Shown piece after piece: positions 1 through 55,000 of a DNA stretch of 64,000 nucleotides; positions within the stretch are counted from its first letter, which is position 1; each line of letters begins with the position of its first letter. The stretch lies in contig CM000432.1 in NCBI GenBank assembly GCA_000165345.1, forward strand, positions 288,001 through 352,000, read 5' to 3'. A program made the translations under genes and the position numbers. Under the pieces are notes generated by a model, which saw only the letters and a list, made by a program, of their open reading frames with translations, was not told where the DNA came from and did no database searches.

Positions 1-102
1 GTATATATGCATATATAAATATATTAACATATATATATCTATATATATATATATTAATATGTATACAACAGGAAATAATTTAATTTGGAAGACTAGTTAA
101 AA

Positions 103-1770
103 ATGAGGCTATTTAAATGGAGGAAAGAATCAAAAAAAATAGTATTTCAAAATAAGAGAAGAAATACGATCAATTATGTAATTGAAAATTTGGAAAAAAA
201 TGAGAAGAATATTCAAAAGGAATATCATGAGAACTGTTTTGAAAAAAGTATTAAAGAAAGCTTGGCAAATAATCATTCTACAGATGATTTAATGTTAAAA
301 AAAGAGCAGATTGAAATGGGAAAAGTTGATGATAATGGTGATTTTTTTCCACTAGAAAATAATTTTTTATGTTTAAAAGAATACATGGTGAATTTGAATA
401 ATGAAAAAAATTATAATGAATATATGAATTTATTACCAAATGATTCAGGCAGGCATAATTATTTAAGTTCAAACAATTCAGAAGATTACAAATTTTATTC
501 ACTTGATTATAATATAGAGGAAAATAAAGATTTTTCAAATATGGAATCAGAATATGCAAGTAGCCACGAATTTTCTAAATTAATGATGAAAAATTCTAAA
601 TTTAAAAATATTATTGTTGATTTTCCATCAAAATTTAAATCTGTTGGTGAAAATAATTCAAAATCAACTTTATCAAAAAGATCTGAAAAATTATCGAAAT
701 CGTTTTCATTGAATAATATTGACATACCTAAAATAAATAATGGAAAAAATGATAAAGAATTGGAATTATTATTTCAAAAGATAAAAAAATTCATGAGAGA
801 AAAATATGGTGAATATAAAAGATTATTAGAAGAAGTTAGTTTATGGGAAGAAAATGGATATAAAAATGGAATCAAATTTTATAAAAAGAAAGAAAATAAT
901 AATGATTCTTATACAGTAATTAGAGGTATAATTGATACAGATATTAGCAAAGAAAATGAATCAATTTATGAAAGCTTACGTAAGAAAAAAATTACAAATA
1001 TAAAAAATAATTGCCATTTAAATGATATAATATCATCAAAAGAATTGATTAATTATGTTTGGGAGACTGATCCACTTTCATATGATAATACTGTTGATAG
1101 AAGTAATAGAGTATATACATGGGATGATGGGAATCCAGGATTTTGTATATATTATCATTCATATAAGGGAGCTTTTGGAGTTCAGGGCAGAGATTTTATG
1201 TTAATTGGATATAAAGATGTAATTAATAATAAAGATCAATTTTCATCATGTGAGATTTCTAACTTGGCAACTTTATCATCTAGTTCACCAAGTAGAGCAA
1301 ATTCTCCAAGTTCCAATTTTCATAATAATAAAAGGATGATCATAAATAATATATCACCAAGTAGATTAAAGATATGGTCAAAAAAGAATAAAAAAAATTG
1401 TAATAATAATATTAAAACTCAGCTACAAGGAATTAAGTCAAATATTAATGATTCAGCATTCTTTATATCATCTGATTTATCAAAGGAATTAAGTGATGAT
1501 AAAAAATTTCATTCATTAATACAAAATATATATAATCCATCTTTTGTTAAAGCAAAATGTTATTTGAATGGAGTAAAAGTTGAAAAATTAACAATAAATA
1601 ACAATATTATTTTGAGGATGGATATATTGTGGATTGGAGATTTAAATGGTAAACTTCCTGAATTTTTGAAAAGAACAGTGCTTTCATCATCTTTAAGTAC
1701 TATTAAAGTACTAAAGGATAAATATATTGAAAAGAAAAAGAATGAATTGTTAAGTATAATCACAAATTAA
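103..1770 (+). CDS. START (StAR-related lipid-transfer) domain protein with an Asn-rich N-terminal half
   Basis: Uninterrupted 555-aa ORF starting at the ATG at 103. The C-terminal part (RDFMLIGYKD ... ILRMDILWIGDLNGKLPEFLKRTVLSSSLSTI) matches the START-domain pattern RDFV..R ... L.W.L.IDLKGWLPK.I.N, as in StAR/PCTP. The N-terminal half is low-complexity Asn/Lys-rich. Confidence 0.55.
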   Translation: MRLFKWRKESKKIVFQNKRRNTINYVIENLEKNEKNIQKEYHENCFEKSIKESLANNHSTDDLMLKKEQIEMGKVDDNGDFFPLENNFLCLKEYMVNLNNEKNYNEYMNLLPNDSGRHNYLSSNNSEDYKFYSLDYNIEENKDFSNMESEYASSHEFSKLMMKNSKFKNIIVDFPSKFKSVGENNSKSTLSKRSEKLSKSFSLNNIDIPKINNGKNDKELELLFQKIKKFMREKYGEYKRLLEEVSLWEENGYKNGIKFYKKKENNNDSYTVIRGIIDTDISKENESIYESLRKKKITNIKNNCHLNDIISSKELINYVWETDPLSYDNTVDRSNRVYTWDDGNPGFCIYYHSYKGAFGVQGRDFMLIGYKDVINNKDQFSSCEISNLATLSSSSPSRANSPSSNFHNNKRMIINNISPSRLKIWSKKNKKNCNNNIKTQLQGIKSNINDSAFFISSDLSKELSDDKKFHSLIQNIYNPSFVKAKCYLNGVKVEKLTINNNIILRMDILWIGDLNGKLPEFLKRTVLSSSLSTIKVLKDKYIEKKKNELLSIITN

Positions 1771-1966
1771 TGGCAAAAAAAAAATTCAATTCATTTCTTT
1801 AAATGAATACAACTTTAAAATGTTATAATATGAAAATGATATGTTTAAATGTATTAATAATGAATACAATGGGAGAATATTTAGTAGTAATAGTCCAAAA
1901 TCATCAAATTAATTAATACAATTTCATTTTCATCATAATTTCAATATTAATATTATATACTTATGT

Positions 1967-2471
1967 TCAAAGCATAAAACCTAACATCATACCAAATCCA
2001 AATAACGAAATACTATTTCTGTTTGTTTCAAAGAATTTCTTCATTTTCTTTTTGAGTTTTTGGTAGTCAAAATGATCATTTTTATAATCAAAAATAGATT
2101 TCTTAATATTTGAATTTAAAAGACCTTCTTTAAGCGGATTAATAAGTTCATCATTTACTTTTTCTTTGCCATATTTCTGTCTCTAAATTAGTAATAGTTT
2201 ATTATCTCAAGTCAAGGAAAAAAAAAAATCAACTTACCAAAAAAATATATATAATAGTACCAGTGCCAGTAATAATGAGAGTTGTTTTAATCATTTTTCT
2301 GCAGAATACTGAAAACATTAGTCCGCCATAAATAGGACAAAAATATCTCAAAACTAAAGTAACTTTTTCTCCAAACGTTTCTATACTAAGTCTATTAATC
2401 TCTTCAAAGCTTGAAGCTTGGATGATTTCCTTGATCATTTCTTCAATTTTGTTGTATTTTCTTTCCATCAT
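1967..2471 (-). CDS. Hypothetical small membrane protein, two exons (exon 1 2238..2471, intron 2183..2237, exon 2 1967..2182)
   Basis: The ORF-track ORF 2229..2471 ends at a TGA that lies inside a consensus donor (TTG|GTAAGTTGA). Splicing from 2237 to the acceptor ...AATTTAG at 2183/2182 continues in phase 0 through a 71-codon stop-free exon (RQKYGKEKVNDELINPLKEG...LFGFGMMLGFML) to the TGA at 1967. Exon 1 carries a hydrophobic TM-like stretch (TLIITGTGTIIYIFL). Confidence 0.45.
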
Positions 2472-2922
2472 ATATTTACTTATCTTTTTAGTTCAATGAT
2501 AATAATAACAATGACAATATTAAATAAATAATATTAATAATAATACTCTTAATTACCAATTCCTATTAGAAAATTGATTTGAATTTCAAATGACTTTTCC
2601 GTGTATATTGTTTATATATTAATATTAAGATTAAAATTTTTAAAAAAGTTATATATGTTGATTTTATTTTTTAAAATAGTCCCAGTTTATTTCATATTAA
2701 TTATTTAAATATATAATTTTTTCCACATGCAAAAAAAAAAAAATTATCAACAACGGTATAGGGAAAAAAATAATTTTTTTTTTGTCATGCAGTTATCTGG
2801 TATTAAAAAAAAAAAAGAAAAATTCGAAAATAACAATTAATTAATAAATTAACATTTAAAGAAGTATTCAAGAATAGAATTTGATTATATATCAAGTCTA
2901 GGAGAAGAACTAATCAATTAAG

Positions 2923-3844
2923 ATGAAGAATTTAATTGATATGAAAGATAAAGATGGAGATTTAATTAAAGGTAATTTTATCAGGAACAAATGTTGAATA
3001 AAATTTCATTAAAATATATTAAAAATAATAAAACAAAAACTTTAAACTACCTCCCACTATCTATTTTCTAAAATTATTTTTATTAATGCTTAAAACTCAA
3101 AAATAATAATAATAATATAATTAAATTACACAGCCAACAAAGATTCATTCATACAAGTAATTGTGGAAATGCACCAAAAACTAGGCGAAACTTTTGAATC
3201 AAACTTTAATAAAATAAGGTAAGTCTTAAATTCTTTAAAATAAAAGAAGAATTTTCTTCCTTTATTTTTTTTTAACTTTTATACACGTCATTAATTTATT
3301 GCATGCAATGACTACATGTACTTTCCCGCTCTTAGAGAAATTAATTACAAAATTAATCAAGATATTGAACAAATACAAGTAAGTTTTTTTTTATTTAAAA
3401 CAAACCTATTTAGTTAAAAAGGAGTTTGTTTTAAATAAAATGTTGATGGTAATGAATAGTATATTGATATAGAAAATTCTAAAAGGAAAGGAAGAAACAA
3501 AAAGAACTACTCCAGTAATATCTTCAACATAACTATAAGTATTAATGGCATTTGTGAGCCTTTATAACTTTATTATGTAAAAAAAACAGTTTTCTATATC
3601 AATATATTACCGCCTTACAACTATTACTCGAACAAATCTTATTCACTTACCATTTTCTTCCCTTAAACATTTTATTAAATTACTTGAAACTATAAATTAT
3701 TTATCTAAATTAAAGAACCTAATCACTAATGAAGAAAAAATCCAGAAAGATCTTCAAGAAAGAAACTCGGTCATTAATAATGTACTGAATGACTTTATGA
3801 ACACTATGCAGGCTACCATTAATGATGGGCCATCCAATAAATAG
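2923..3844 (+). CDS. Candidate multi-exon gene for a small coiled-coil protein. Exons 2923..2971, 3134..3218 and 3336..3378, plus a terminal exon ending at the TAG at 3842..3844 (acceptor at 3715/3716 or 3589/3590)
   Basis: Not in the ORF track. ATG at 2923 (MKNLIDMKDKDGDLIK), donor AAG|GTAATT at 2972, acceptor CACAG at 3133. Exon 2 (..NKDSFIQVIVEMHQKLGETFESNFNKI) ends at donor AAG|GTAAGT at 3219, acceptor CTTAG at 3335. Exon 3 (EINYKINQDIEQIQ) ends at donor CAA|GTAAGT at 3379. Phases are consistent across these junctions (0>1>2>0). The last exon (NLITNEEKIQKDLQERNSVINNVLNDFMNTMQATINDGPSNK*) is open and in phase 0, but the intron feeding it would be 210-335 nt, long for this locus. The model is therefore tentative. 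Confidence 0.3.
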
Positions 3845-3937
3845 AAAATTCTTATAAATAACTATTTTCAATATTGTTATCAATTCTATTGCTACAACAA
3901 TTAGACTTTAGAATTTTTTTTATGTATCAAAATATAT

Positions 3938-6900
3938 CTACTTTTCACTTGTTACAATATTTATATTAACATTAGTATTCAAGACTTCATCTTCCACATT
4001 TTTACTACTCTCAACTTCCCCATTGATGATTGGGGATATACTTTGATTTGAAGTATTGAGACAATCTCCTCCGTCTTCCATTCTTTCCTCTCTTTCTTCT
4101 TTTCTTATATTCACATTTAAATTTGTATTACTTCCATCTTTAACTTTTGAACTTAAATTTGCAACAATAATACTATTTGCATTACGTCCAGAAATGCTCA
4201 TATTATTATTTGTATTGTTTCCTCCTCCTCCACTCCTTAATACTGCCTCTCCACTATTCACAGCGTTTAGTCTACACTGAATAGCCAATTTCTTTGCCTC
4301 ATTGAACCCATATTTTTTCACATAAAAATGTCTTGAGTGTCTTTTTCTATTCTGATCATACCATTCTGCTACCCATTCTTGATCTCTAGTCTTCCAATAT
4401 ACACCTGGAATTCCTGATTTATAACTAATTCCTCCCATATTCTTCTTTTTTGGAGATGTTATAGCTTTAATCTTTGAACTTGATGAAGAAGCTGGAGTGG
4501 AAGAAACTGTTGGAGCAGTAGATTCTGAAATTTCCAAAATATTGGCTGAATCTTTTATCATTGAAAAACTTGTTGAGTTTGAAGAAATCGAAGAATCTAC
4601 TGATGATGATGTTACTGATCTTGAAATCTTCTTCTCCTCCATTAAATTATCTGTTATATCTCCATTACTTGTACAATTATTTCCAATAATATTAATATTT
4701 CCATCACTTATACTACCACTGATATTGCTTCCACTATTTTTTAAAAAATTTTCATTAGCTATATTCATATTGTTTTCAATATTAATATTAATATTATTAT
4801 TATTGCTACTATTATTATTATTACTATTATTGCTAAAACTCGAATTTCCAGAAATTAAAGGCTCAAAAGATGTCAATAAGTTACTTATTCCTTGGTTATA
4901 ATTCATCATTTCTTCTCTTAATGGGTCAATTTTTTCCAGATTAATGGCTTCAACCATATTTGTATCGCTTCTAGGAACTAATATTCCATTTTCTTGTGAT
5001 ATTATCTTTTTAATCATTCCATTAATATCCATATTAGTATTATTACCATTATTGTTTTGTTGGCACTGAGACTGAATTTGAAATTGGCTTTGATTCTGAG
5101 ATTGATTTTGAGTTTGGTTCAAATGATTCAGTAATATGTTTTCTGTTAGATTTCCTGGAATATTCTGAAATTGATCTAAATTATTCAAGGATAATGATCC
5201 AAAATTATTATTACTACTTGTCGGTACCGATTTATTAGATCCCATTAAATTCTGTAATATGTTATACATATATTGGCTCTGGTGATTGCTTAGATGATTA
5301 ATATGATTATTTCCAGAATTGAATGTATTATTAATCGTTCCATTAGCTCCACTTGCTTGATTTATTCCAAGCATATTTGCCAAATTCGTATTCAAACTTG
5401 AATAGTTACTAAAATACCCTCCAACTCCATTATTAACTCCATTACCCAGTAATAAACTATTCATCATTTTACTTTTTGTCATTCCTTCAAGAGTAGAATC
5501 ATTTAACATTTGCAAAGGAGATAGATAATTAAAATCAATAGAATTCAACATATTTAAAGATGGTGAATTATTATAATTTCCATTGATATTATTGGTGTTG
5601 TTGTTCTTAGTAGTAAACCCTTCAGAATTATCACCAAAAAATTGATGCTTTAACATATTACCATAATAACTATTCAAATAATTGGAAATCATAGAATTGA
5701 GATTAACATTCATGTTATTAGCGTTATTTATATTACTTGGGCTTGAGCCACTTAATGCTCCATTCAAAAGTAACATATTTGATAGAATCATATTATTGTA
5801 ATCAGTTACCATATTATTGGTACCAACATTTCCGGTATTAGCTCCAAAATTACTGTTATTTGTACCTATAAGTCCATTATAACTGCTGTTATTAGTGCCA
5901 GTATTACTATTATTAGTATTGTTATTATTGCTATTATTATTGTTGCCACCATATAAATATTGCATTAATTGACTTAATAATAGCTGATAACTATTATTTT
6001 GAACAAGTATTGGTTGGCTCCCTTCAGTAGAATTATTATTATTATTATTACTTAAGCCATTTAAAGCAGAGAAGCTAGAACCATTCAAATTAATTAATGA
6101 AGAACTACTATTGCCGTTATTGTTATTATTACTATTACCATCGGCATTCAAGGGATTTATAATTCCAGAATTACCATAATTGTTGAAAATATTAAAACAA
6201 GAATTTGTAATTCCTGAAGAACCAGAGTAATTATTATGATATTTAAATTCTTTATTATTAACATACTCTACTACATTATCTCTCAATTTTTTTTCATTGA
6301 TTAACTTTACCCTCCATTCTATTGCTTTTAATCTTGAAATATCAATTCCATCCTCGCCAATCTCATAAGCAAAAGATTGAGTACATGTTTCATGTGTTAT
6401 TGAATCTAGCCAAACTCCTATCCAGACTTTATTTATTGGATGCCAAAATATTCCCTCATATTCGGCATCTTCTTTTAAATGTTTCATTTCTTCCATAAGT
6501 AACCCAATACCTTCATCACTCATATTATTCATAATTTTTTGTATATTCTTTTTCTCCATCAAATTCATAACAATTGATCTATCATCCTTTAATAAGTATT
6601 CAGGCCTTTCATATTCTGCTGTTCCATACTTTGCAATTCTCATTCCTTTTATACCTCCAATATAATTATGAGAGCCTATTGATGCACCTACTCCAGTCTC
6701 ACCCTGATGGCCACCACCTATATAGCAACTTTTATTCATATTTAAATACATCTTCCCTGTAAGACTAGTTTCATGTAACTTTCTTGCTGTTGCTTTTCCA
6801 TTTTCAATTGCATCAACCCTTGATTTTATTGCCATTTGCTTTGCATCTTCAAAACCATATACTCTTGCTGAAAAGCCGTGAGTAATTCTTCTTCCTGAAA

Positions 6901-7417
6901 TAGAATCACTCCACTGAGCAATCCATCTTTGACTACTTTCTTGCCAATAAACTCCAGGAACCCCACTTTGATGTTCTGCTCTTCTTAATCTAGTTCCAGT
7001 TCCTTTTCTAGTAGACACTATAGAACTATTAAAATCTTTTCTGCCAACTTCCACAGTTGTAACACCCTCCTCGCTGTTCTTTTCCTCATCTGATTTAGAA
7101 TCTTCATCATTAATAGCTTCGTCTTTATTAATAAAACTATCCTCTTGGTTCTGAACTTCTATATAATTCTGCTCCATAGTAACATCATCAATGATATTTT
7201 TAGAATTTTCGTCTGGTGTTTCAACATGATTTTCAATTTGAGATTGGACTTGTTGAATTTTACTATTACCAACTTCAACTTCGTTAGATTTATCAAAATT
7301 TTCACCAATTCCACATGTTGGTGTATCTTCTTGTGTAGAGTCCATAGTAGTATACTGACTCCAGTCTACAACTTCTTTATCAATAAAAACCTTTCCAGTT
7401 TCTAATTTTTCCTCCAT
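3938..7417 (-). CDS. ApiAP2 transcription factor (two canonical AP2 domains plus one AP2-like domain), Asn/Ser-rich
   Basis: 1159-aa ORF. AP2 domain 1 lies at about nt 6781..6970 (SGVPGVYWQESSQRWIAQWSDSISGRRITHGFSARVYGFEDAKQMAIKSRVDAIENG). AP2 domain 2 lies at about nt 4260..4420 (SGIPGVYWKTRDQEWVAEWYDQNRKRHSRHFYVKKYGFNEAKKLAIQCRLNAV). An AP2-like segment lies at about nt 6260..6465 (GIFWHPINKVWIGVWLD...FAYEIGEDG...AIEWR). The long Asn/Ser low-complexity linkers are typical of apicomplexan AP2 factors. Confidence 0.85.
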   Translation of the reverse strand: MEEKLETGKVFIDKEVVDWSQYTTMDSTQEDTPTCGIGENFDKSNEVEVGNSKIQQVQSQIENHVETPDENSKNIIDDVTMEQNYIEVQNQEDSFINKDEAINDEDSKSDEEKNSEEGVTTVEVGRKDFNSSIVSTRKGTGTRLRRAEHQSGVPGVYWQESSQRWIAQWSDSISGRRITHGFSARVYGFEDAKQMAIKSRVDAIENGKATARKLHETSLTGKMYLNMNKSCYIGGGHQGETGVGASIGSHNYIGGIKGMRIAKYGTAEYERPEYLLKDDRSIVMNLMEKKNIQKIMNNMSDEGIGLLMEEMKHLKEDAEYEGIFWHPINKVWIGVWLDSITHETCTQSFAYEIGEDGIDISRLKAIEWRVKLINEKKLRDNVVEYVNNKEFKYHNNYSGSSGITNSCFNIFNNYGNSGIINPLNADGNSNNNNNGNSSSSLINLNGSSFSALNGLSNNNNNNSTEGSQPILVQNNSYQLLLSQLMQYLYGGNNNNSNNNNTNNSNTGTNNSSYNGLIGTNNSNFGANTGNVGTNNMVTDYNNMILSNMLLLNGALSGSSPSNINNANNMNVNLNSMISNYLNSYYGNMLKHQFFGDNSEGFTTKNNNTNNINGNYNNSPSLNMLNSIDFNYLSPLQMLNDSTLEGMTKSKMMNSLLLGNGVNNGVGGYFSNYSSLNTNLANMLGINQASGANGTINNTFNSGNNHINHLSNHQSQYMYNILQNLMGSNKSVPTSSNNNFGSLSLNNLDQFQNIPGNLTENILLNHLNQTQNQSQNQSQFQIQSQCQQNNNGNNTNMDINGMIKKIISQENGILVPRSDTNMVEAINLEKIDPLREEMMNYNQGISNLLTSFEPLISGNSSFSNNSNNNNSSNNNNININIENNMNIANENFLKNSGSNISGSISDGNINIIGNNCTSNGDITDNLMEEKKISRSVTSSSVDSSISSNSTSFSMIKDSANILEISESTAPTVSSTPASSSSSKIKAITSPKKKNMGGISYKSGIPGVYWKTRDQEWVAEWYDQNRKRHSRHFYVKKYGFNEAKKLAIQCRLNAVNSGEAVLRSGGGGNNTNNNMSISGRNANSIIVANLSSKVKDGSNTNLNVNIRKEEREERMEDGGDCLNTSNQSISPIINGEVESSKNVEDEVLNTNVNINIVTSEK

Positions 7418-7663
7418 TTTGAGAATTCACTCAAAAAAATTGCCTTATTTAAATATCAAAATGACTATCTTATATAATAATAGAATAATCTATCAGCTTC
7501 TTAAATATTCCGTATTTTAACTTGCAAATCCAATAGCTTAATAACTAATTTTTGCCAGATTGCTTCTTTAAATTTGAAATTAATCTTGTTTTCAAAATAA
7601 TTCTTCACAAACTCTGCTCTTTTATAAAATTACCTTAATATATTTACATATGTATATATATAA

Positions 7664-7690
7664 GCATATATATATATATATATATATATG
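7664..7690. repeat. (TA)n microsatellite
   Basis: Perfect TA dinucleotide run in the intergenic spacer. Confidence 0.9.
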
Positions 7691-8081
7691 TACATTTATA
7701 CATATATACTTTTTTTTAGTTTTAATCTTTACTTCATATTAATTCAATTAGCTTGTATTATTTATATCTCTAAGACTTTATCCTTCTCTTGTTATAACAC
7801 AACTTAAGAATAAAGAAAAGTCTTAATTATTGCTTCCCAATACTGCTTTGTTTTATTTTGGAAAACTTCTTTAAATATATATTTATATTTTTTGAATATA
7901 AATCAATATTTAGTCATTTAATGACGAACTGCACTTTTATCCACGATTTACTTGTATGTTAACATTTTTTTAAACATTTCTGCATACCTCGTGCCATGTA
8001 AACATATCAATATTATTACTCTTTCCTACATTTACTGCTATTTTAGTATTATTTTCTTTTTTTTTCAGCAATCTATCCTCA

Positions 8082-8105
8082 CATGCGCATGCAAATGCAT
8101 GCAAT
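8082..8105. promoter_or_regulatory. Cluster of overlapping GCATGC palindromes (CATGCGCATGCAAATGCATGCAAT), about 670 bp upstream of the ApiAP2 gene start
   Basis: GC-containing palindromic island in an otherwise AT-rich spacer. GCATGC/TGCATGCA-type elements are known ApiAP2-type binding motifs in apicomplexan promoters. Confidence 0.4.
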
Positions 8106-8135
8106 ACCTACAATGTGGGCAAAAATAATTCCACG

Positions 8136-8148
8136 TATGGCGGGAACC
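8136..8148. promoter_or_regulatory. E2F-like box (TATGGCGGGAACC)
   Basis: Matches the TTTGGCGGGAAA-type E2F/DP-like motif over-represented upstream of Cryptosporidium genes. It lies in the spacer upstream of the ApiAP2 gene (minus strand, start 7417). Confidence 0.4.
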
Positions 8149-8291
8149 TGACAAAATTATAAATATTTAAAACAAGGTGCTTGTTTAATTGAAAATAGAC
8201 TAAAGGAAGAGAAAATAATACAGGAAAAAGCTGAAAATCCCCGTGATAATAGTTAAAATTTTAACAATTTGCGATTCTAAGCTAGAATTTA

Positions 8292-9632
8292 TTAAAGCTC
8301 AGTGGATTGATCCCCGTCTCTAATGGATGATTGTATATTAACTCCAATCTCAATCGAATAGTTAATAAAAGTAGTGATAAACATGATGATAAATATAGTT
8401 AGTAAAGTATATTTAATAATGTTTAGGCCAAAGCCAAACATTCCACCATTTTGATTGCTTTTAGCTATATTCATTTGTTTATTATTAGACTTCGCAGAAT
8501 TTTTTCTAGATTTAATTTCTAATACAGAAATGGAATAGTCAGCTCCAGCTGAAATAATATATTCATTAGAATTAAAAAATTGTAGGCCAGTAACTGGGAG
8601 CTCATGAAAAATCCCTTCTTTAAGTAAAGTTAGCTCAGTCAGATTATTTTTGAATATTTTAATTAAGCCAGTGTTAGTACCAACAGCCAAAAGTTTATAA
8701 TCGTCAGAAACAACTAGCACAGAAGATGGTTTATCACAAATCAAATTAGAGGCAATTTGGGCAAATAATATGCGATTATTTGGATTTTCATTTGAATTTT
8801 CTTTAGATATCTTCATATTCCAAACTGTCATAAAGGATGAGCCTCTGATTTCATGTAATAACATTGAAACAATATACTGTTGTCTATCATTATTTTTCTG
8901 TCTTCTAGGGCTATTTAACCTTCCATTCTCAATAAAACGGCATTGCCTCACTAAATAATTCCCATTCTTCATCGGTATCGTGAATTTTTTAAAAATATCT
9001 CCAGAATTATACTCATGTACGATAATTGTACCATTTCTATTTGTTGAAATGATAAATTTATTATCTGGAGATATATCCAAATCCAAAATTTCATTTTCAT
9101 GTCCATGAAGCTCCTTCATTTCTAATGGAATGATTTCTCGTGGATTTTCTGAATCAATATTTAATTTCCAAACACGGACAATATTGTCAGTTCCACCAGT
9201 AATTAGGAATTCTCCATTTTTTGAAAACCTACAAACATTTTGTTTACCTTTCTTATTTCCATCCCAGACTGTTTGAAACTGAAGATACATTCTAATTGAC
9301 TTCCCTTGCTTTTCTTCTTCTATATAAAATAATATACAACAATCTCTTATTCCACCTGCTACTAAATTTAATTTGTTATTAAAGCACATACTATCTAATA
9401 CTCCATTTTGTTTAGTTGTATTATAAATATATTTTAACATTAAAGAACTTTCAGCAGAAATTTTATCATTTGCATTTAATTTCTGACACTCTACCTCACA
9501 ATCTTTCAATTCATATAGTTCTATTTGGTCTTCTATTCCATAATCTTTTCCTCCACCTCCTCCACTTAAAATAATGGAATCTCTTGTACAGCATAGCCCA
9601 AAAATGGGATAATCCGCATAATATATTGGCAT
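8292..9632 (-). CDS. SEC12: Sec12/PREB-like WD40 guanine-nucleotide exchange factor for Sar1 (type II membrane protein)
   Basis: The N-terminus MPIYYADYPIFG...SIILSGGGGGKDYGIEDQIELYEL parallels yeast Sec12 (GYPAYGAKF...LLVAGGGGEGNNGIPNKL). WD40-like repeats run through the body, and there is a single C-terminal TM segment (YTLLTIFIIMFITTFINY) with a short lumenal tail, as in Sec12. Confidence 0.7.
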   Translation of the reverse strand: MPIYYADYPIFGLCCTRDSIILSGGGGGKDYGIEDQIELYELKDCEVECQKLNANDKISAESSLMLKYIYNTTKQNGVLDSMCFNNKLNLVAGGIRDCCILFYIEEEKQGKSIRMYLQFQTVWDGNKKGKQNVCRFSKNGEFLITGGTDNIVRVWKLNIDSENPREIIPLEMKELHGHENEILDLDISPDNKFIISTNRNGTIIVHEYNSGDIFKKFTIPMKNGNYLVRQCRFIENGRLNSPRRQKNNDRQQYIVSMLLHEIRGSSFMTVWNMKISKENSNENPNNRILFAQIASNLICDKPSSVLVVSDDYKLLAVGTNTGLIKIFKNNLTELTLLKEGIFHELPVTGLQFFNSNEYIISAGADYSISVLEIKSRKNSAKSNNKQMNIAKSNQNGGMFGFGLNIIKYTLLTIFIIMFITTFINYSIEIGVNIQSSIRDGDQSTEL

Positions 9633-9829
9633 TATGTTGGATTAATTCGTATATTCTATTTAATTTCAAACCTTAATTACTAATACATAGGAATGTTAGC
9701 TTACGTTATTTATGATCAATTTTCCACTCCAAATCTTTCCTATTATTAAATATCAGATATAAGTAAAAAAGTAAATAAAAAGTCTTTATGCTTATATTTT
9801 TATTTATTCAGCCTTTTAAATAAATTTAT

Positions 9830-9863
<34 letters not shown>

Positions 9864-52097: not shown

Positions 52098-55000
52098 TTA
52101 TAACTTTTTTATTGTTAAGGTTCCCTTATGTAAATACCAAAACTTTTTAATTCCATTCAAATTTCTAATATCATGAGCAACAATAAATGTAGTTGAATGG
52201 CTAAAATACTTAAAAATAATATTTGTAATCAAAGTCGATTTCTTGTTTGAAGTAGAGTTCATATTCACATTATCATTACAATAAATTACCGGTGGCTCAT
52301 CAATCAGTAAAATACTTATTTCATTTCTCTTTAAGAAGTAATGAGTAAATAATAACAACCTCTGTATTTGCATTGGTAAATTTAATTCACTAATCTTCCT
52401 GTTCAAATAATTATTCATTATGGTAAGTCTGTCATTTCCCATTAAAAGAGGTGCACTTTCATCTGGTTTTTTCTCTCCCACAAAAGAATTTTTGAAATTT
52501 ATCTTATGGTTAAAATTATTCATGGTTTCTCTTTCTAATAAATAATTAGTTACACCACATATGTTCAATGCAGAAATTATGTTATCATTTGAATAATTTT
52601 CAAATGGGTCAACAGATTCTCTTATTGTTGTATTCTCATTAAAAAATACCTCAACAGGAAGCATTGCAACATGTCTCATCATATTATAATCTTCCAAAAA
52701 TATCTTCATTATTTCTTCATCCACATTACTCCTACATAACTTGCAGTTTACTAAGTGGTTGCTGTTTAGTAAATTATTATTGGAAGAAATTGGATGGCTT
52801 ATTTTTCCTTTATGTTTCAAAGATTTTGCTATTAAAAATAGTAATGAAGTTTTTCCAGACCCTGATCGTCCAACTATTCCTATTATCTCTCCTTTATTTG
52901 CTATAGCATTTATATTATTTAAACAACAAACTTGTTTTACCAATGTTCCTCTAACTTCTGAACGATCTAATTGAGATTTCTCATTCTCCGTTGATAAATT
53001 TGAATGATAACCATATGCTGACTCTAATATTATATTATTATTTTGGTTCATTTTTATATTGTTATCATATTTCACATTATTGTTTTCTAATAAATCATTC
53101 TTCATTTTGTATTCATCTTTAATAAGCTCCAAATACTTTCTCATCCTTTCCACAGAAACTAATTCCTTTTCTAGTCGCATTAAATACCTCACAACCTCGT
53201 CAATTCTGCTTAGAGAACCAAAAGCAGTAGCAATCATTAAAGCTATTAATATTTTTGAACTTCCATTTGAAAAATATGATGAAAATACATTGAAAAATGT
53301 TAATGGAATAATAATTCCAACTTGAAGTCTAATCTTTAGCCAAGCTTCCAGAGAAGATTGAATATATATTGGTCTCATAATCTCTTGAAGCTGGCCATAT
53401 CCATTTTCTAAATAAAATCTGTCCAACTTCTGAGGTCTTATACATTCTTTTCCATCGCATATATTTCTAACTGTATCTACTAATAATGAAATCTCTGAAA
53501 TATAAGTATTATGTAATAATCTGCATGAATGTATAAAATACCTAAATATATATTTATATATTATATAGAAAAGTATTGAGAATAATATAGTCTGTATTAT
53601 TGGATATTCTGAAGCTAATATAGATAAATATATTGTTGCCAATACTCTATTAACTGCTGTAACAAATTGTCCAACCCTTTTAGTTGTACAATAATCAATT
53701 GTGAGTTGGTCCAAGCTGATTCTATTCAATATAAATGATACTGGTATATATCTGATACAAGAAGAAAGTTTTGATCCAATATATCCTAATAAAAATGAAT
53801 TATGCAAATTATTCGCAGCTCTTAATCCAACGTAAACTTCTAGAATACCGCTTGCAATGACTGATAGTATTGCCAAAAAAATACAAACAAAATATGTGAA
53901 ATAAAGAATATCAACACCTATAATTCCTCCAATTTTACTTCCTGTTTCACTTACTAGTGATAAATTACCTAATAGTACTTTTTCTCCAAATAATAAAATG
54001 AATTGATGAAGCAATAGTAATACCAAATAAAGTATCATTTCTAATGATGATTCTTGAATCTTTTCAGTAATTGACCAATTTTTTGGATATTTAAATCTAT
54101 TTGCAGCTTTCAATATATAGAAAAATAAAGTAGAGTATGAGTTTTCTGAAGAGCCACCTAAAACTTCTTTTTTTGGAAGAAGCTCAATAAATTCTTCAGT
54201 TTTTTCCTCACAACATTTTAAACTATTTAATCCCATATCCACCCTATTTTCATACTTTATATGAGTTTGGCTATCAGCAATTTCACTTTCATTACCGTTA
54301 GAATTACTACTTAAATTTAAGACTTCATCCTCCTCAGTAGAAAGTTCCCACAAATCTTTAGAAAAATCAGTATCAAAGCAGAAATCATTAATAATAGAAT
54401 GTATACTGGAAGATGTATTAACACTTGTAGTTGATTTTGGTGATTCAATATTGACACCAAAACTCCTATTTTCACCATATTTGAATGGTATTACGTGTAT
54501 TATAGATTCCAGAATATTATTAGGAAGGAAATTAAGCATTTGAGTATCCAAAATCATTATAGAAAATACATGTTTCAGTAATCCATTTTCATGATTAAAT
54601 AGTTTCTCAAGTATTGAACAACAAACTGGAGGATCCAAACTACTAAATATTGAATCTAATATCAAAATTGGAACACCATCTTGAAGATTGTTGTTAGATT
54701 CATCATTTTTAGATTCAATTCCATATAATGCTCTTGAAAGAGAAAGGCGAACCTTTTGGCCTCTACTGAATTGAACTTGTGAGAATATAGTACTTCTGGC
54801 CATATCATAAGTTGAAATACCCCAAGATACAAAGTCATTCCTTAGCTCACAAATATCTATAACTCTCTCCCATGAATCCTGGTCATAATCTCTTCCATTC
54901 AAAATAATATCAGCTAGACTCATACCATCTGTAATCCACGAATCCAAGGGAACATAACATACTGGGTTAGAAATGTCTGCCAATATATTCGATATTTCTC

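Follow-up and report, generated by a model that had tools for sequence, protein, structure and literature searches.

The segment from 1967 to 3844 of the 64,000-nucleotide (nt) stretch of DNA analysed here (the window, positions 288,001 to 352,000 of contig CM000432.1 in assembly GCA_000165345.1) raises the question of whether two intron-containing genes lie side by side in DNA with a G+C content of 22-30%. A sequence-only reading had proposed such a pair, one member cut short and the other missed by a list of open reading frames (ORFs). The evidence below makes it practically certain that the segment holds two genuine, divergent, spliced protein-coding genes of Cryptosporidium parvum chromosome 4, with a 451-nt intergenic promoter region in common. 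The minus-strand gene joins two exons across one short intron and encodes a basic 149-amino-acid (aa) integral membrane protein, with three hydrophobic segments in a FUN14-type layout. The plus-strand gene joins four exons and encodes an acidic 101-aa protein, a predicted beta-hairpin followed by a 77-residue amphipathic helix, which most likely acts as a coiled-coil subunit of a larger assembly.

Positions 1-9844 of the window match the C. parvum IOWA-ATCC chromosome 4 record CP044419.1 (GCA_015245375.1) without a mismatch, starting from record position 288,284. The gene spans called on that record (L001 5045-5549 and 6001-6922) coincide exactly with window positions 1967-2471 and 2923-3844, the plus-strand gene occupying 291,206-292,127 of CP044419.1. 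Using an exact-sequence look-up and a protein search, we found both spliced products among GenBank proteins, residue for residue, with 100% identity and 100% coverage. The 149-aa product of the minus-strand gene is QOY41998.1 / WRK32028.1 (CPATCC_0018210, cpbgf_4001103; also P0001), and the 101-aa product of the plus-strand gene is QOY41999.1 / WRK32027.1 (CPATCC_0018220, cpbgf_4001105; also P0012). Both gene models are already public in GenBank for this assembly and in annotations of the CryptoDB type, and for C. parvum they offer nothing new. The proposal that the genes had been missed is correct for a six-frame ORF view and incorrect for the public annotation, in which both are present; what the sequence-only reading observed is confirmed and its interpretation is supported, and the finding was already known. 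The introns of the IOWA-ATCC annotation are 100% supported by RNA-seq, as stated in its source paper (PMC8744675). The BGF annotation was lifted from it and then curated manually with RNA-seq and Iso-Seq, and its identifiers mirror the legacy cgd numbers (PMC12179316). Literature searches on cgd4_1103, cgd4_1105 and the cpbgf and CPATCC identifiers returned nothing specific to either gene. The GT...AG boundaries are canonical in both genes, and splicing restores a single open frame in each.

The plus-strand gene begins with exon 1 (2923-2971, 49 nt), which starts at the ATG at 2923 and ends in phase 1 at AAG/GTAATT. Intron 1 (2972-3133, 162 nt) runs from GTAATT to CAG. It is followed by exon 2 (3134-3218, 85 nt), entered through a CACAG acceptor and left in phase 2 through an AAG/GTAAGT donor, and by intron 2 (3219-3335, 117 nt, GTAAGT...TAG), whose 3′ part contains TGCATGCA (3300-3307) and TTTCCCGC (3322-3329). 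Exon 3 (3336-3378, 43 nt) has a CTTAG acceptor and a CAA/GTAAGT donor and ends in phase 0. Intron 3 (3379-3715, 337 nt, GTAAGT...AAG) carries a 5′ hairpin and a long-range stem, and exon 4 (3716-3844, 129 nt), which follows an AAG acceptor, consists of 42 codons and a TAG stop (3842-3844). Joined together, the exons form a coding sequence of 306 nt, in frame throughout and encoding 101 aa, with introns in phases 1, 2 and 0. The three short, phase-consistent exons that had been read from the ATG and its splice sites are thus as described, their product starts with the peptide given at the time, and the stop-ended open exon downstream proves to be an in-frame fourth exon. A gene of four or five exons had been suggested; four stand. 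A fifth exon inside intron 3 was rejected, because the four-exon frame is complete and conserved and intron 3 is only 63-100 nt long in C. bovis, C. ryanae and C. serpentis. Between 2472 and 3937 there is no plus-strand ORF of at least 40 aa, in keeping with the remark that six-frame translation does not display this gene.

To follow the plus-strand gene through the genus, syntenic regions were located via orthologues of the neighbouring genes, and gene models were built by hand in C. ubiquitum, C. canis, C. felis, chipmunk genotype I, C. meleagridis, C. hominis, C. ryanae, C. bovis and C. serpentis, the last of these belonging to the gastric clade. A search of relatives with the predicted peptide had been recommended; tblastn found all four exons at the syntenic site in each of the nine other species. 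With C. parvum included, all ten species have an intact four-exon frame of 98-102 aa, interrupted by three GT...AG introns at the same positions and in the same phases. Exon 1 measures 40-49 nt and exon 2 82-91 nt across the ten, exon 3 is always 43 nt, and exon lengths differ by whole codons only. Intron lengths drift freely, from about 50 to 358 nt: intron 1 is 118-218 nt in the six other intestinal-clade species, and C. ryanae, C. bovis and C. serpentis have one of about 50-123 nt; intron 3 ranges from 63 nt (C. bovis) through 100 nt (C. serpentis) and 160 nt (C. felis) to 287-358 nt in the group from C. parvum to C. canis. The AAG acceptor of exon 4, the first AG after a 60-nt AG-free stretch, is kept in six species; TAG or CAG stands in its place in C. 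felis (where it is TAG), C. ryanae, C. bovis and C. serpentis. The protein sequence encoded by exon 2 is 83-100% identical to that of C. parvum in eight of the nine other species and 66% identical in C. serpentis, and exon 1 keeps its ATG and phase.

Could the plus-strand locus instead be a spliced long non-coding RNA (lncRNA) or a decayed pseudogene, its 101-codon frame a chance product of AT-rich sequence? Such a view would fit the lack of a long six-frame ORF and the many lncRNAs annotated in C. parvum (PMC12179316). It would also fit the nine other Cryptosporidium assemblies (L002-L010), none of which has a gene call between the AP2 gene and the membrane-protein gene, and a protein that appears to be restricted to the genus, with no homologue outside it detectable in the searches given below. 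Against it stand the frame, which is intact in ten species with its exon 3 of constant length and other exons varying by whole codons, and the pattern of substitution. Exon identity to C. parvum is 0.88-0.95 in six species, compared with 0.62-0.70 for introns and intergenic DNA, so that the exons are about 25-30 percentage points more conserved than the introns. By the Nei-Gojobori method, the ratio of nonsynonymous to synonymous substitution rates (dN/dS) is 0.04-0.13 where dS is not saturated, with 16-22 synonymous and 4-9 nonsynonymous differences. This substitution pattern effectively refutes the non-coding alternatives, to which we attach next to no probability. Judged by its evolution, the plus-strand gene is under purifying selection, the mark of a real, constrained coding gene, and chance frame, lncRNA and pseudogene are ruled out on that basis.

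A different objection concerns the 5′ part of the gene. The E2F-like motif TTTCCCGC at 3322-3329 and GCATGCA at 3301-3307 do lie within intron 2, at the positions reported for them, and they had been offered as the main reason for caution: if they formed the true promoter, the real gene would start after 3300-3330, and exons 1 and 2 would be spurious. Both belong to promoter-type elements already known from C. parvum. The AP2 domain of cgd2_3490 binds GCATGCA, which is the AP2_1 motif, and motifs of the TTTCCCGCC / TTTGGCGGGAA type form the E2F-like family, the most abundant class of upstream motif in C. parvum (PMC3734150). E2F motifs also dominate open-chromatin peaks (bioRxiv 10.1101/2025.01.17.633476), and the two intronic motifs are conserved in seven species. 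This caution does not survive the comparison between species. The protein sequence encoded by exons 1 and 2 is conserved in all ten; exon 3 lacks an ATG, and the first in-frame ATG downstream would leave only 15 codons, too few to be usable; and the gene is retained in C. ryanae, C. bovis and C. serpentis, where the motifs are missing. For these three reasons the motifs do not mark the gene start, and a start downstream of them is extremely improbable.

Within C. parvum the public gene CPATCC_0018220 / cpbgf_4001105 has the same sequence and span as the four-exon model and is the same gene; what is added here is the set of uncalled orthologues in nine other assemblies. Among about 15 billion public proteins there is no exact match to any of the nine orthologous proteins, and a 90%-identity cluster search with the 101-aa protein returned the C. 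parvum entry only. Given the lack of exact matches and the single C. parvum cluster, the gene appears to be without annotation outside C. parvum in the data examined. The nine orthologues would be an easy fix for comparative annotation, and the gene is an example of how a short multi-exon gene can escape gene callers in intron-poor genomes.

The minus-strand gene is simpler. Its exon 1 (2238-2471, minus strand) starts with the ATG at 2471-2469, comprises 78 codons and ends at TTG/GTAAGT, a donor position kept in seven species. The intron (2183-2237, minus strand; GTAAGT...TAG) is 55 nt long and in phase 0, and has a branch-like TACTAAT element 7 nt before the AG. Exon 2 (1967-2182, minus strand) consists of 71 codons and a TGA stop (1969-1967), and includes the C-terminal hydrophobic segment. 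The ATG-initiated ORF at 2229-2471 from which the sequence-only reading started is indeed in the ORF list, and the 71-codon second exon that splicing was expected to restore is found at 2182-1967. One detail needs a trivial correction: the donor lies at 2237-2232 as described, and the TGA stop of the ORF (2231-2229) directly follows the GTAAGT hexamer, where it had been placed within it.

Annotations of at least seven other species share this junction (C. ubiquitum, C. canis, C. felis, chipmunk genotype I, C. hominis, C. tyzzeri and C. meleagridis), and the GTAAGT donor and the first AG acceptor, at the TAG position, are kept in all seven loci compared. Tandem acceptors occur at window positions 2177-2185 on the minus strand, where TAG is followed directly by AGACAG; the current model takes the TAG, and the CAG acceptor 6 nt downstream is used in an older C. 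parvum model (P0005, 136 aa). This CAG was not found in C. meleagridis, C. ubiquitum, C. canis or C. felis, and only the first acceptor position is conserved. The first acceptor, which is that of the sequence-only reading and also of the IOWA-ATCC and BGF annotations, is therefore the better supported, and the downstream CAG may be used as an alternative at a low level. In the seven species listed for the junction, the orthologues carry the name 'putative integral membrane protein', and some public models start at Met12 and have 138 aa, where the protein described here has 149.

That the gene would be truncated if its intron were overlooked is borne out by two public models. The C. ryanae model (L008 15868-16147, 83 aa) and the C. 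bovis model (L009 15858-16169, 92 aa) contain exon 1 only, the kind of truncation that the sequence-only reading had described. By tblastn, exon 2 was found downstream of each, at L008 16203-16379 and L009 16193-16369 respectively. Judged from these alignments, both models are unspliced and cut off after exon 1, and both are correctable. A further protein, P0011, is a 103-aa prokaryote-style ORF call on a 919-nt Logan contig (an assembly of a raw sequencing run), in which exon 1 of the membrane-protein gene is read through without splicing. Its source is a Cryptosporidium species, and over the aligned segment it shares 81% identity with the C. parvum protein.

The two genes are separated by the intergenic region at 2472-2922 (451 nt), from which they diverge. 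This shared upstream region contains two CATGCA elements, at 2726-2731 and 2786-2791, both invariant in seven species.

The 101-aa protein has a mass of 11.8 kDa and is acidic, with an isoelectric point (pI) of 4.9. Its AlphaFold2 (AF2) model has a predicted local distance difference test score (pLDDT) of 92.8; in it, strands 4-8 and 14-18 form a beta-hairpin, and residues 19-95 form a single unbroken helix (77 residues). The hydrophobic periodicity of the sequence is 3.55 residues, with a power that was reached by none of 1000 shuffled sequences. From its modelled shape, the protein is most likely a coiled-coil subunit of a larger assembly. When the orthologues were scanned one by one against Pfam, the matches were inconsistent and below threshold, among them Glutaredoxin2_C, Fzo_mitofusin and CENP-K. 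Subunits of BLOC-1/BORC-like complexes (snapin, KXD1) and of DASH/Dam1, considered on grounds of size and helical character, were dropped as candidates because no Pfam match to them was obtained at E <= 1; the sole exception in this screen was one 'Muted' match in one orthologue (E = 0.032). A word-indexed search of 5.8 billion clusters matched the 101-aa protein only to itself. It is thus an orphan, yet strongly constrained.

The 149-aa protein has a mass of 17.6 kDa and is basic (pI 9.5). Kyte-Doolittle peaks mark three hydrophobic segments, at about residues 43-57, 63-79 and 135-149. The best Pfam match is to FUN14 (PF04930), aligning residues 49-147 with profile positions 7-92 of 92 and so spanning both exons; a FUN14 match at E <= 0.1 was obtained for eight of the ten orthologues, the best having E = 0.0037. 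The protein resembles the FUN14 family in size (about 150 aa) and in arrangement, with a pair of neighbouring hydrophobic segments that contain glycine, a linker that is helical and charged, and a further hydrophobic segment right at the C-terminus, but differs from it in a Pfam score under the gathering threshold. Human FUNDC1, a member of the FUN14 family, is a mitochondrial outer-membrane protein. The C. parvum product is, by prediction, a small integral membrane protein that is FUN14-like in layout and at most a putative member of the family.

Several results weigh against this account of the locus and its products. The acceptor of exon 4 in the plus-strand gene is a weak AAG, and the transcript support quoted above consists of general statements in the annotation papers, which are not specific to these two loci. 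In a full phmmer scan of 1.84 billion representative proteins, the 101-aa protein matched only itself. Sequence profile searches of the PDB, made with seven and with nine orthologues, returned coiled-coil noise only (E >= 0.06), and a Foldseek comparison of the AF2 model with the PDB gave no match with E <= 0.001. For the 149-aa protein, the FUN14 score is 16.3 bits (E = 0.014), below the Pfam gathering threshold of 22.5 bits. Alignment by hhalign with a FUNDC1 sequence, which reaches 110 bits against PF04930, gave E = 0.28 over the C-terminal 25 columns only. The AF2 model of the 149-aa protein is poor (pLDDT 49.6), too poor for a fold search. The biochemical roles proposed for the two proteins are putative.

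The two motifs in intron 2, having no part in the start of the gene, may have another significance. In the window TTTCCCGC is found four times where 0.25 occurrences would be expected, and GCATGCA 15 times where the expectation is 2.8. The sites TTTCCCGC (3322) and TGCATGCA (3300) match the published consensus sequences, TTTCCCGCC / TTTGGCGGGAA for the E2F-like class and [T/C]GCATGC[A/G] for AP2_1. In five species (C. parvum, C. hominis, chipmunk genotype I, C. ubiquitum and C. canis) the TTCCCGC core of the former lies at exactly -13 from the end of intron 2; the distance is -19 in C. felis, and C. meleagridis has a mutated version that has lost the CGC core. An AP2_1-like element is present 21-39 nt from the end of the intron in all seven intestinal-clade species compared, and neither motif was found in intron 2 of C. 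ryanae, C. bovis or C. serpentis. The 3′ block of intron 2 is 0.75 identical, compared with 0.61 for intron interiors. The other introns of both genes lack a C-rich tract before the AG, and the C-rich motif tract is therefore not a generic polypyrimidine requirement. On these comparisons the motifs are real and probably selected, and a regulatory role for them is possible.

Intron 3 (337 nt) is about four times as long as the mean C. parvum intron, a mean that we derived from the figure of 1370 introns making up 1.29% of the genome (PMC9465071), and nested inverted repeats occur in it. With RNAalifold, the six long introns yielded a consensus with a 5′ hairpin (3392-3408 paired with 3422-3437, plus strand) and a long-range stem (3447-3451 with 3608-3612, and 3461-3478 with 3588-3605, plus strand). 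The minimum free energy (MFE) z-score relative to shuffled sequences is -3.8 in C. parvum and -3.3 to -4.8 in C. hominis, C. ubiquitum and C. canis; it is weaker, about -1.1 to -1.2, in C. meleagridis and chipmunk genotype I, and the short intron 3 of C. felis is unstructured (z = -0.17). In the consensus structure 91.4% of cells are paired, compared with 41-47% in slid controls. Compensatory changes occur in 13 of the 39 pairs, compared with 1-6 in slid controls, and none of 500 shuffles reached 13; as the comparison comprises six related sequences, three of them very close relatives, the statistics are weak and the covariation is suggestive, not proven. Searches of the introns against Rfam 15 gave chance-level matches only (E >= 0.69), with none at the gathering score and no snoRNA match. 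A small nucleolar RNA (snoRNA) or other known RNA in the introns was rejected, as the ACA box after the second stem is not conserved and the Rfam matches are at chance level. The last 10 nt of intron 3 (TAAATTAAAG, in the region of window positions 3698-3715) are invariant in six species, together with the unusual AAG acceptor.

Two readings of the stems were considered: they may form a bridging stem that assists splicing, or they may belong to a structured RNA hosted by the intron. In long yeast introns, zipper stems or bridging helices bring the 5′ splice site and the branch point together. Intron 3 is similar in that it is unusually long and has about 110 nt (3479-3587) looped out by its long-range stem, which shows compensatory changes in six species. 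The stem differs in belonging to another organism, in being predicted from sequence, and in being limited to the clade from C. parvum to C. canis, a limit that follows from the length of intron 3 in C. bovis, C. ryanae, C. serpentis and C. felis, which is only 63-160 nt. The second reading has a precedent in the intronic structured non-coding RNAs (ncRNAs) reported in C. parvum by Li et al. 2022 (PMC9465071). These likewise have a conserved secondary structure within an intron of a compact genome; unlike them, the structure in intron 3 is predicted from sequence and has no snoRNA match in Rfam.

It is conceivable that these features form a lineage-specific layer on top of both genes, made up of an E2F and AP2_1 module in intron 2 and a structured RNA in intron 3 (a zipper stem or an ncRNA, possibly with its own start site). 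The near-fixed spacing of TTCCCGC, the AP2_1-like element in all seven species, the conserved 3′ block and the C-rich tract peculiar to intron 2 are consistent with such a layer, as are the z-scores, compensatory pairs and pairing frequency of intron 3 and the precedent of Li et al. Other evidence goes against it. Covariation drawn from six or seven sequences is weak in the way described and subject to the caveats of the tool itself, the covariation term of RNAalifold is small, and Rfam offers no match. The motifs occur in C. felis, whose intron 3 is short and unstructured, and C. meleagridis has lost the CGC core. Conservation of the motif block could, moreover, simply reflect the 3′ splice-site region. 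We regard the layer as possible but less likely than not. Less likely still, though not negligible, is that introns 2 and 3 would together constitute one intragenic regulatory unit in the intestinal clade, whether as an internal start site, an intron-hosted structured RNA or a splicing switch controlled by structure and by a factor. In six of the seven species of that clade, intron 3 has grown to about 290-360 nt around the hairpin and the long stem; the proposed unit would be placed 94 nt upstream of the 3′ end of the neighbouring AP2 gene. The motifs of intron 2 and the stems of intron 3 are modest, testable leads on regulation and splicing in a very compact genome.

Downstream, the plus-strand gene converges on an ORF at 3938-7417 on the minus strand, which encodes an AP2-domain protein of 1159 aa (AP2 domains, E = 7e-29). 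Like the low G+C content, these domains indicate an apicomplexan source. From the order of identifiers (cpbgf_4001105, then 4001110), this neighbour is probably cgd4_1110, that is AP2-F, an essential female-specific factor (bioRxiv 10.1101/2022.11.23.517783). As the stop codons of the 101-aa gene and the AP2 gene are only 93 nt apart, the 3′ untranslated regions of the two must overlap, and cassettes placed at the 3′ end of the AP2 gene may disturb the 101-aa gene.

Two further groups of motifs were noted elsewhere in the window. A second pair of GCATGCA and TTTCCCGC, 57 nt apart, lies at 55243-55307, inside the minus-strand ORF 52098-56570, and may be either an internal promoter or a coincidence. 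Three overlapping or adjacent GCATGCA (AP2_1) sites are found at 8087-8103, within the 874 nt (7417 to 8292) that lie upstream of the AP2 gene.

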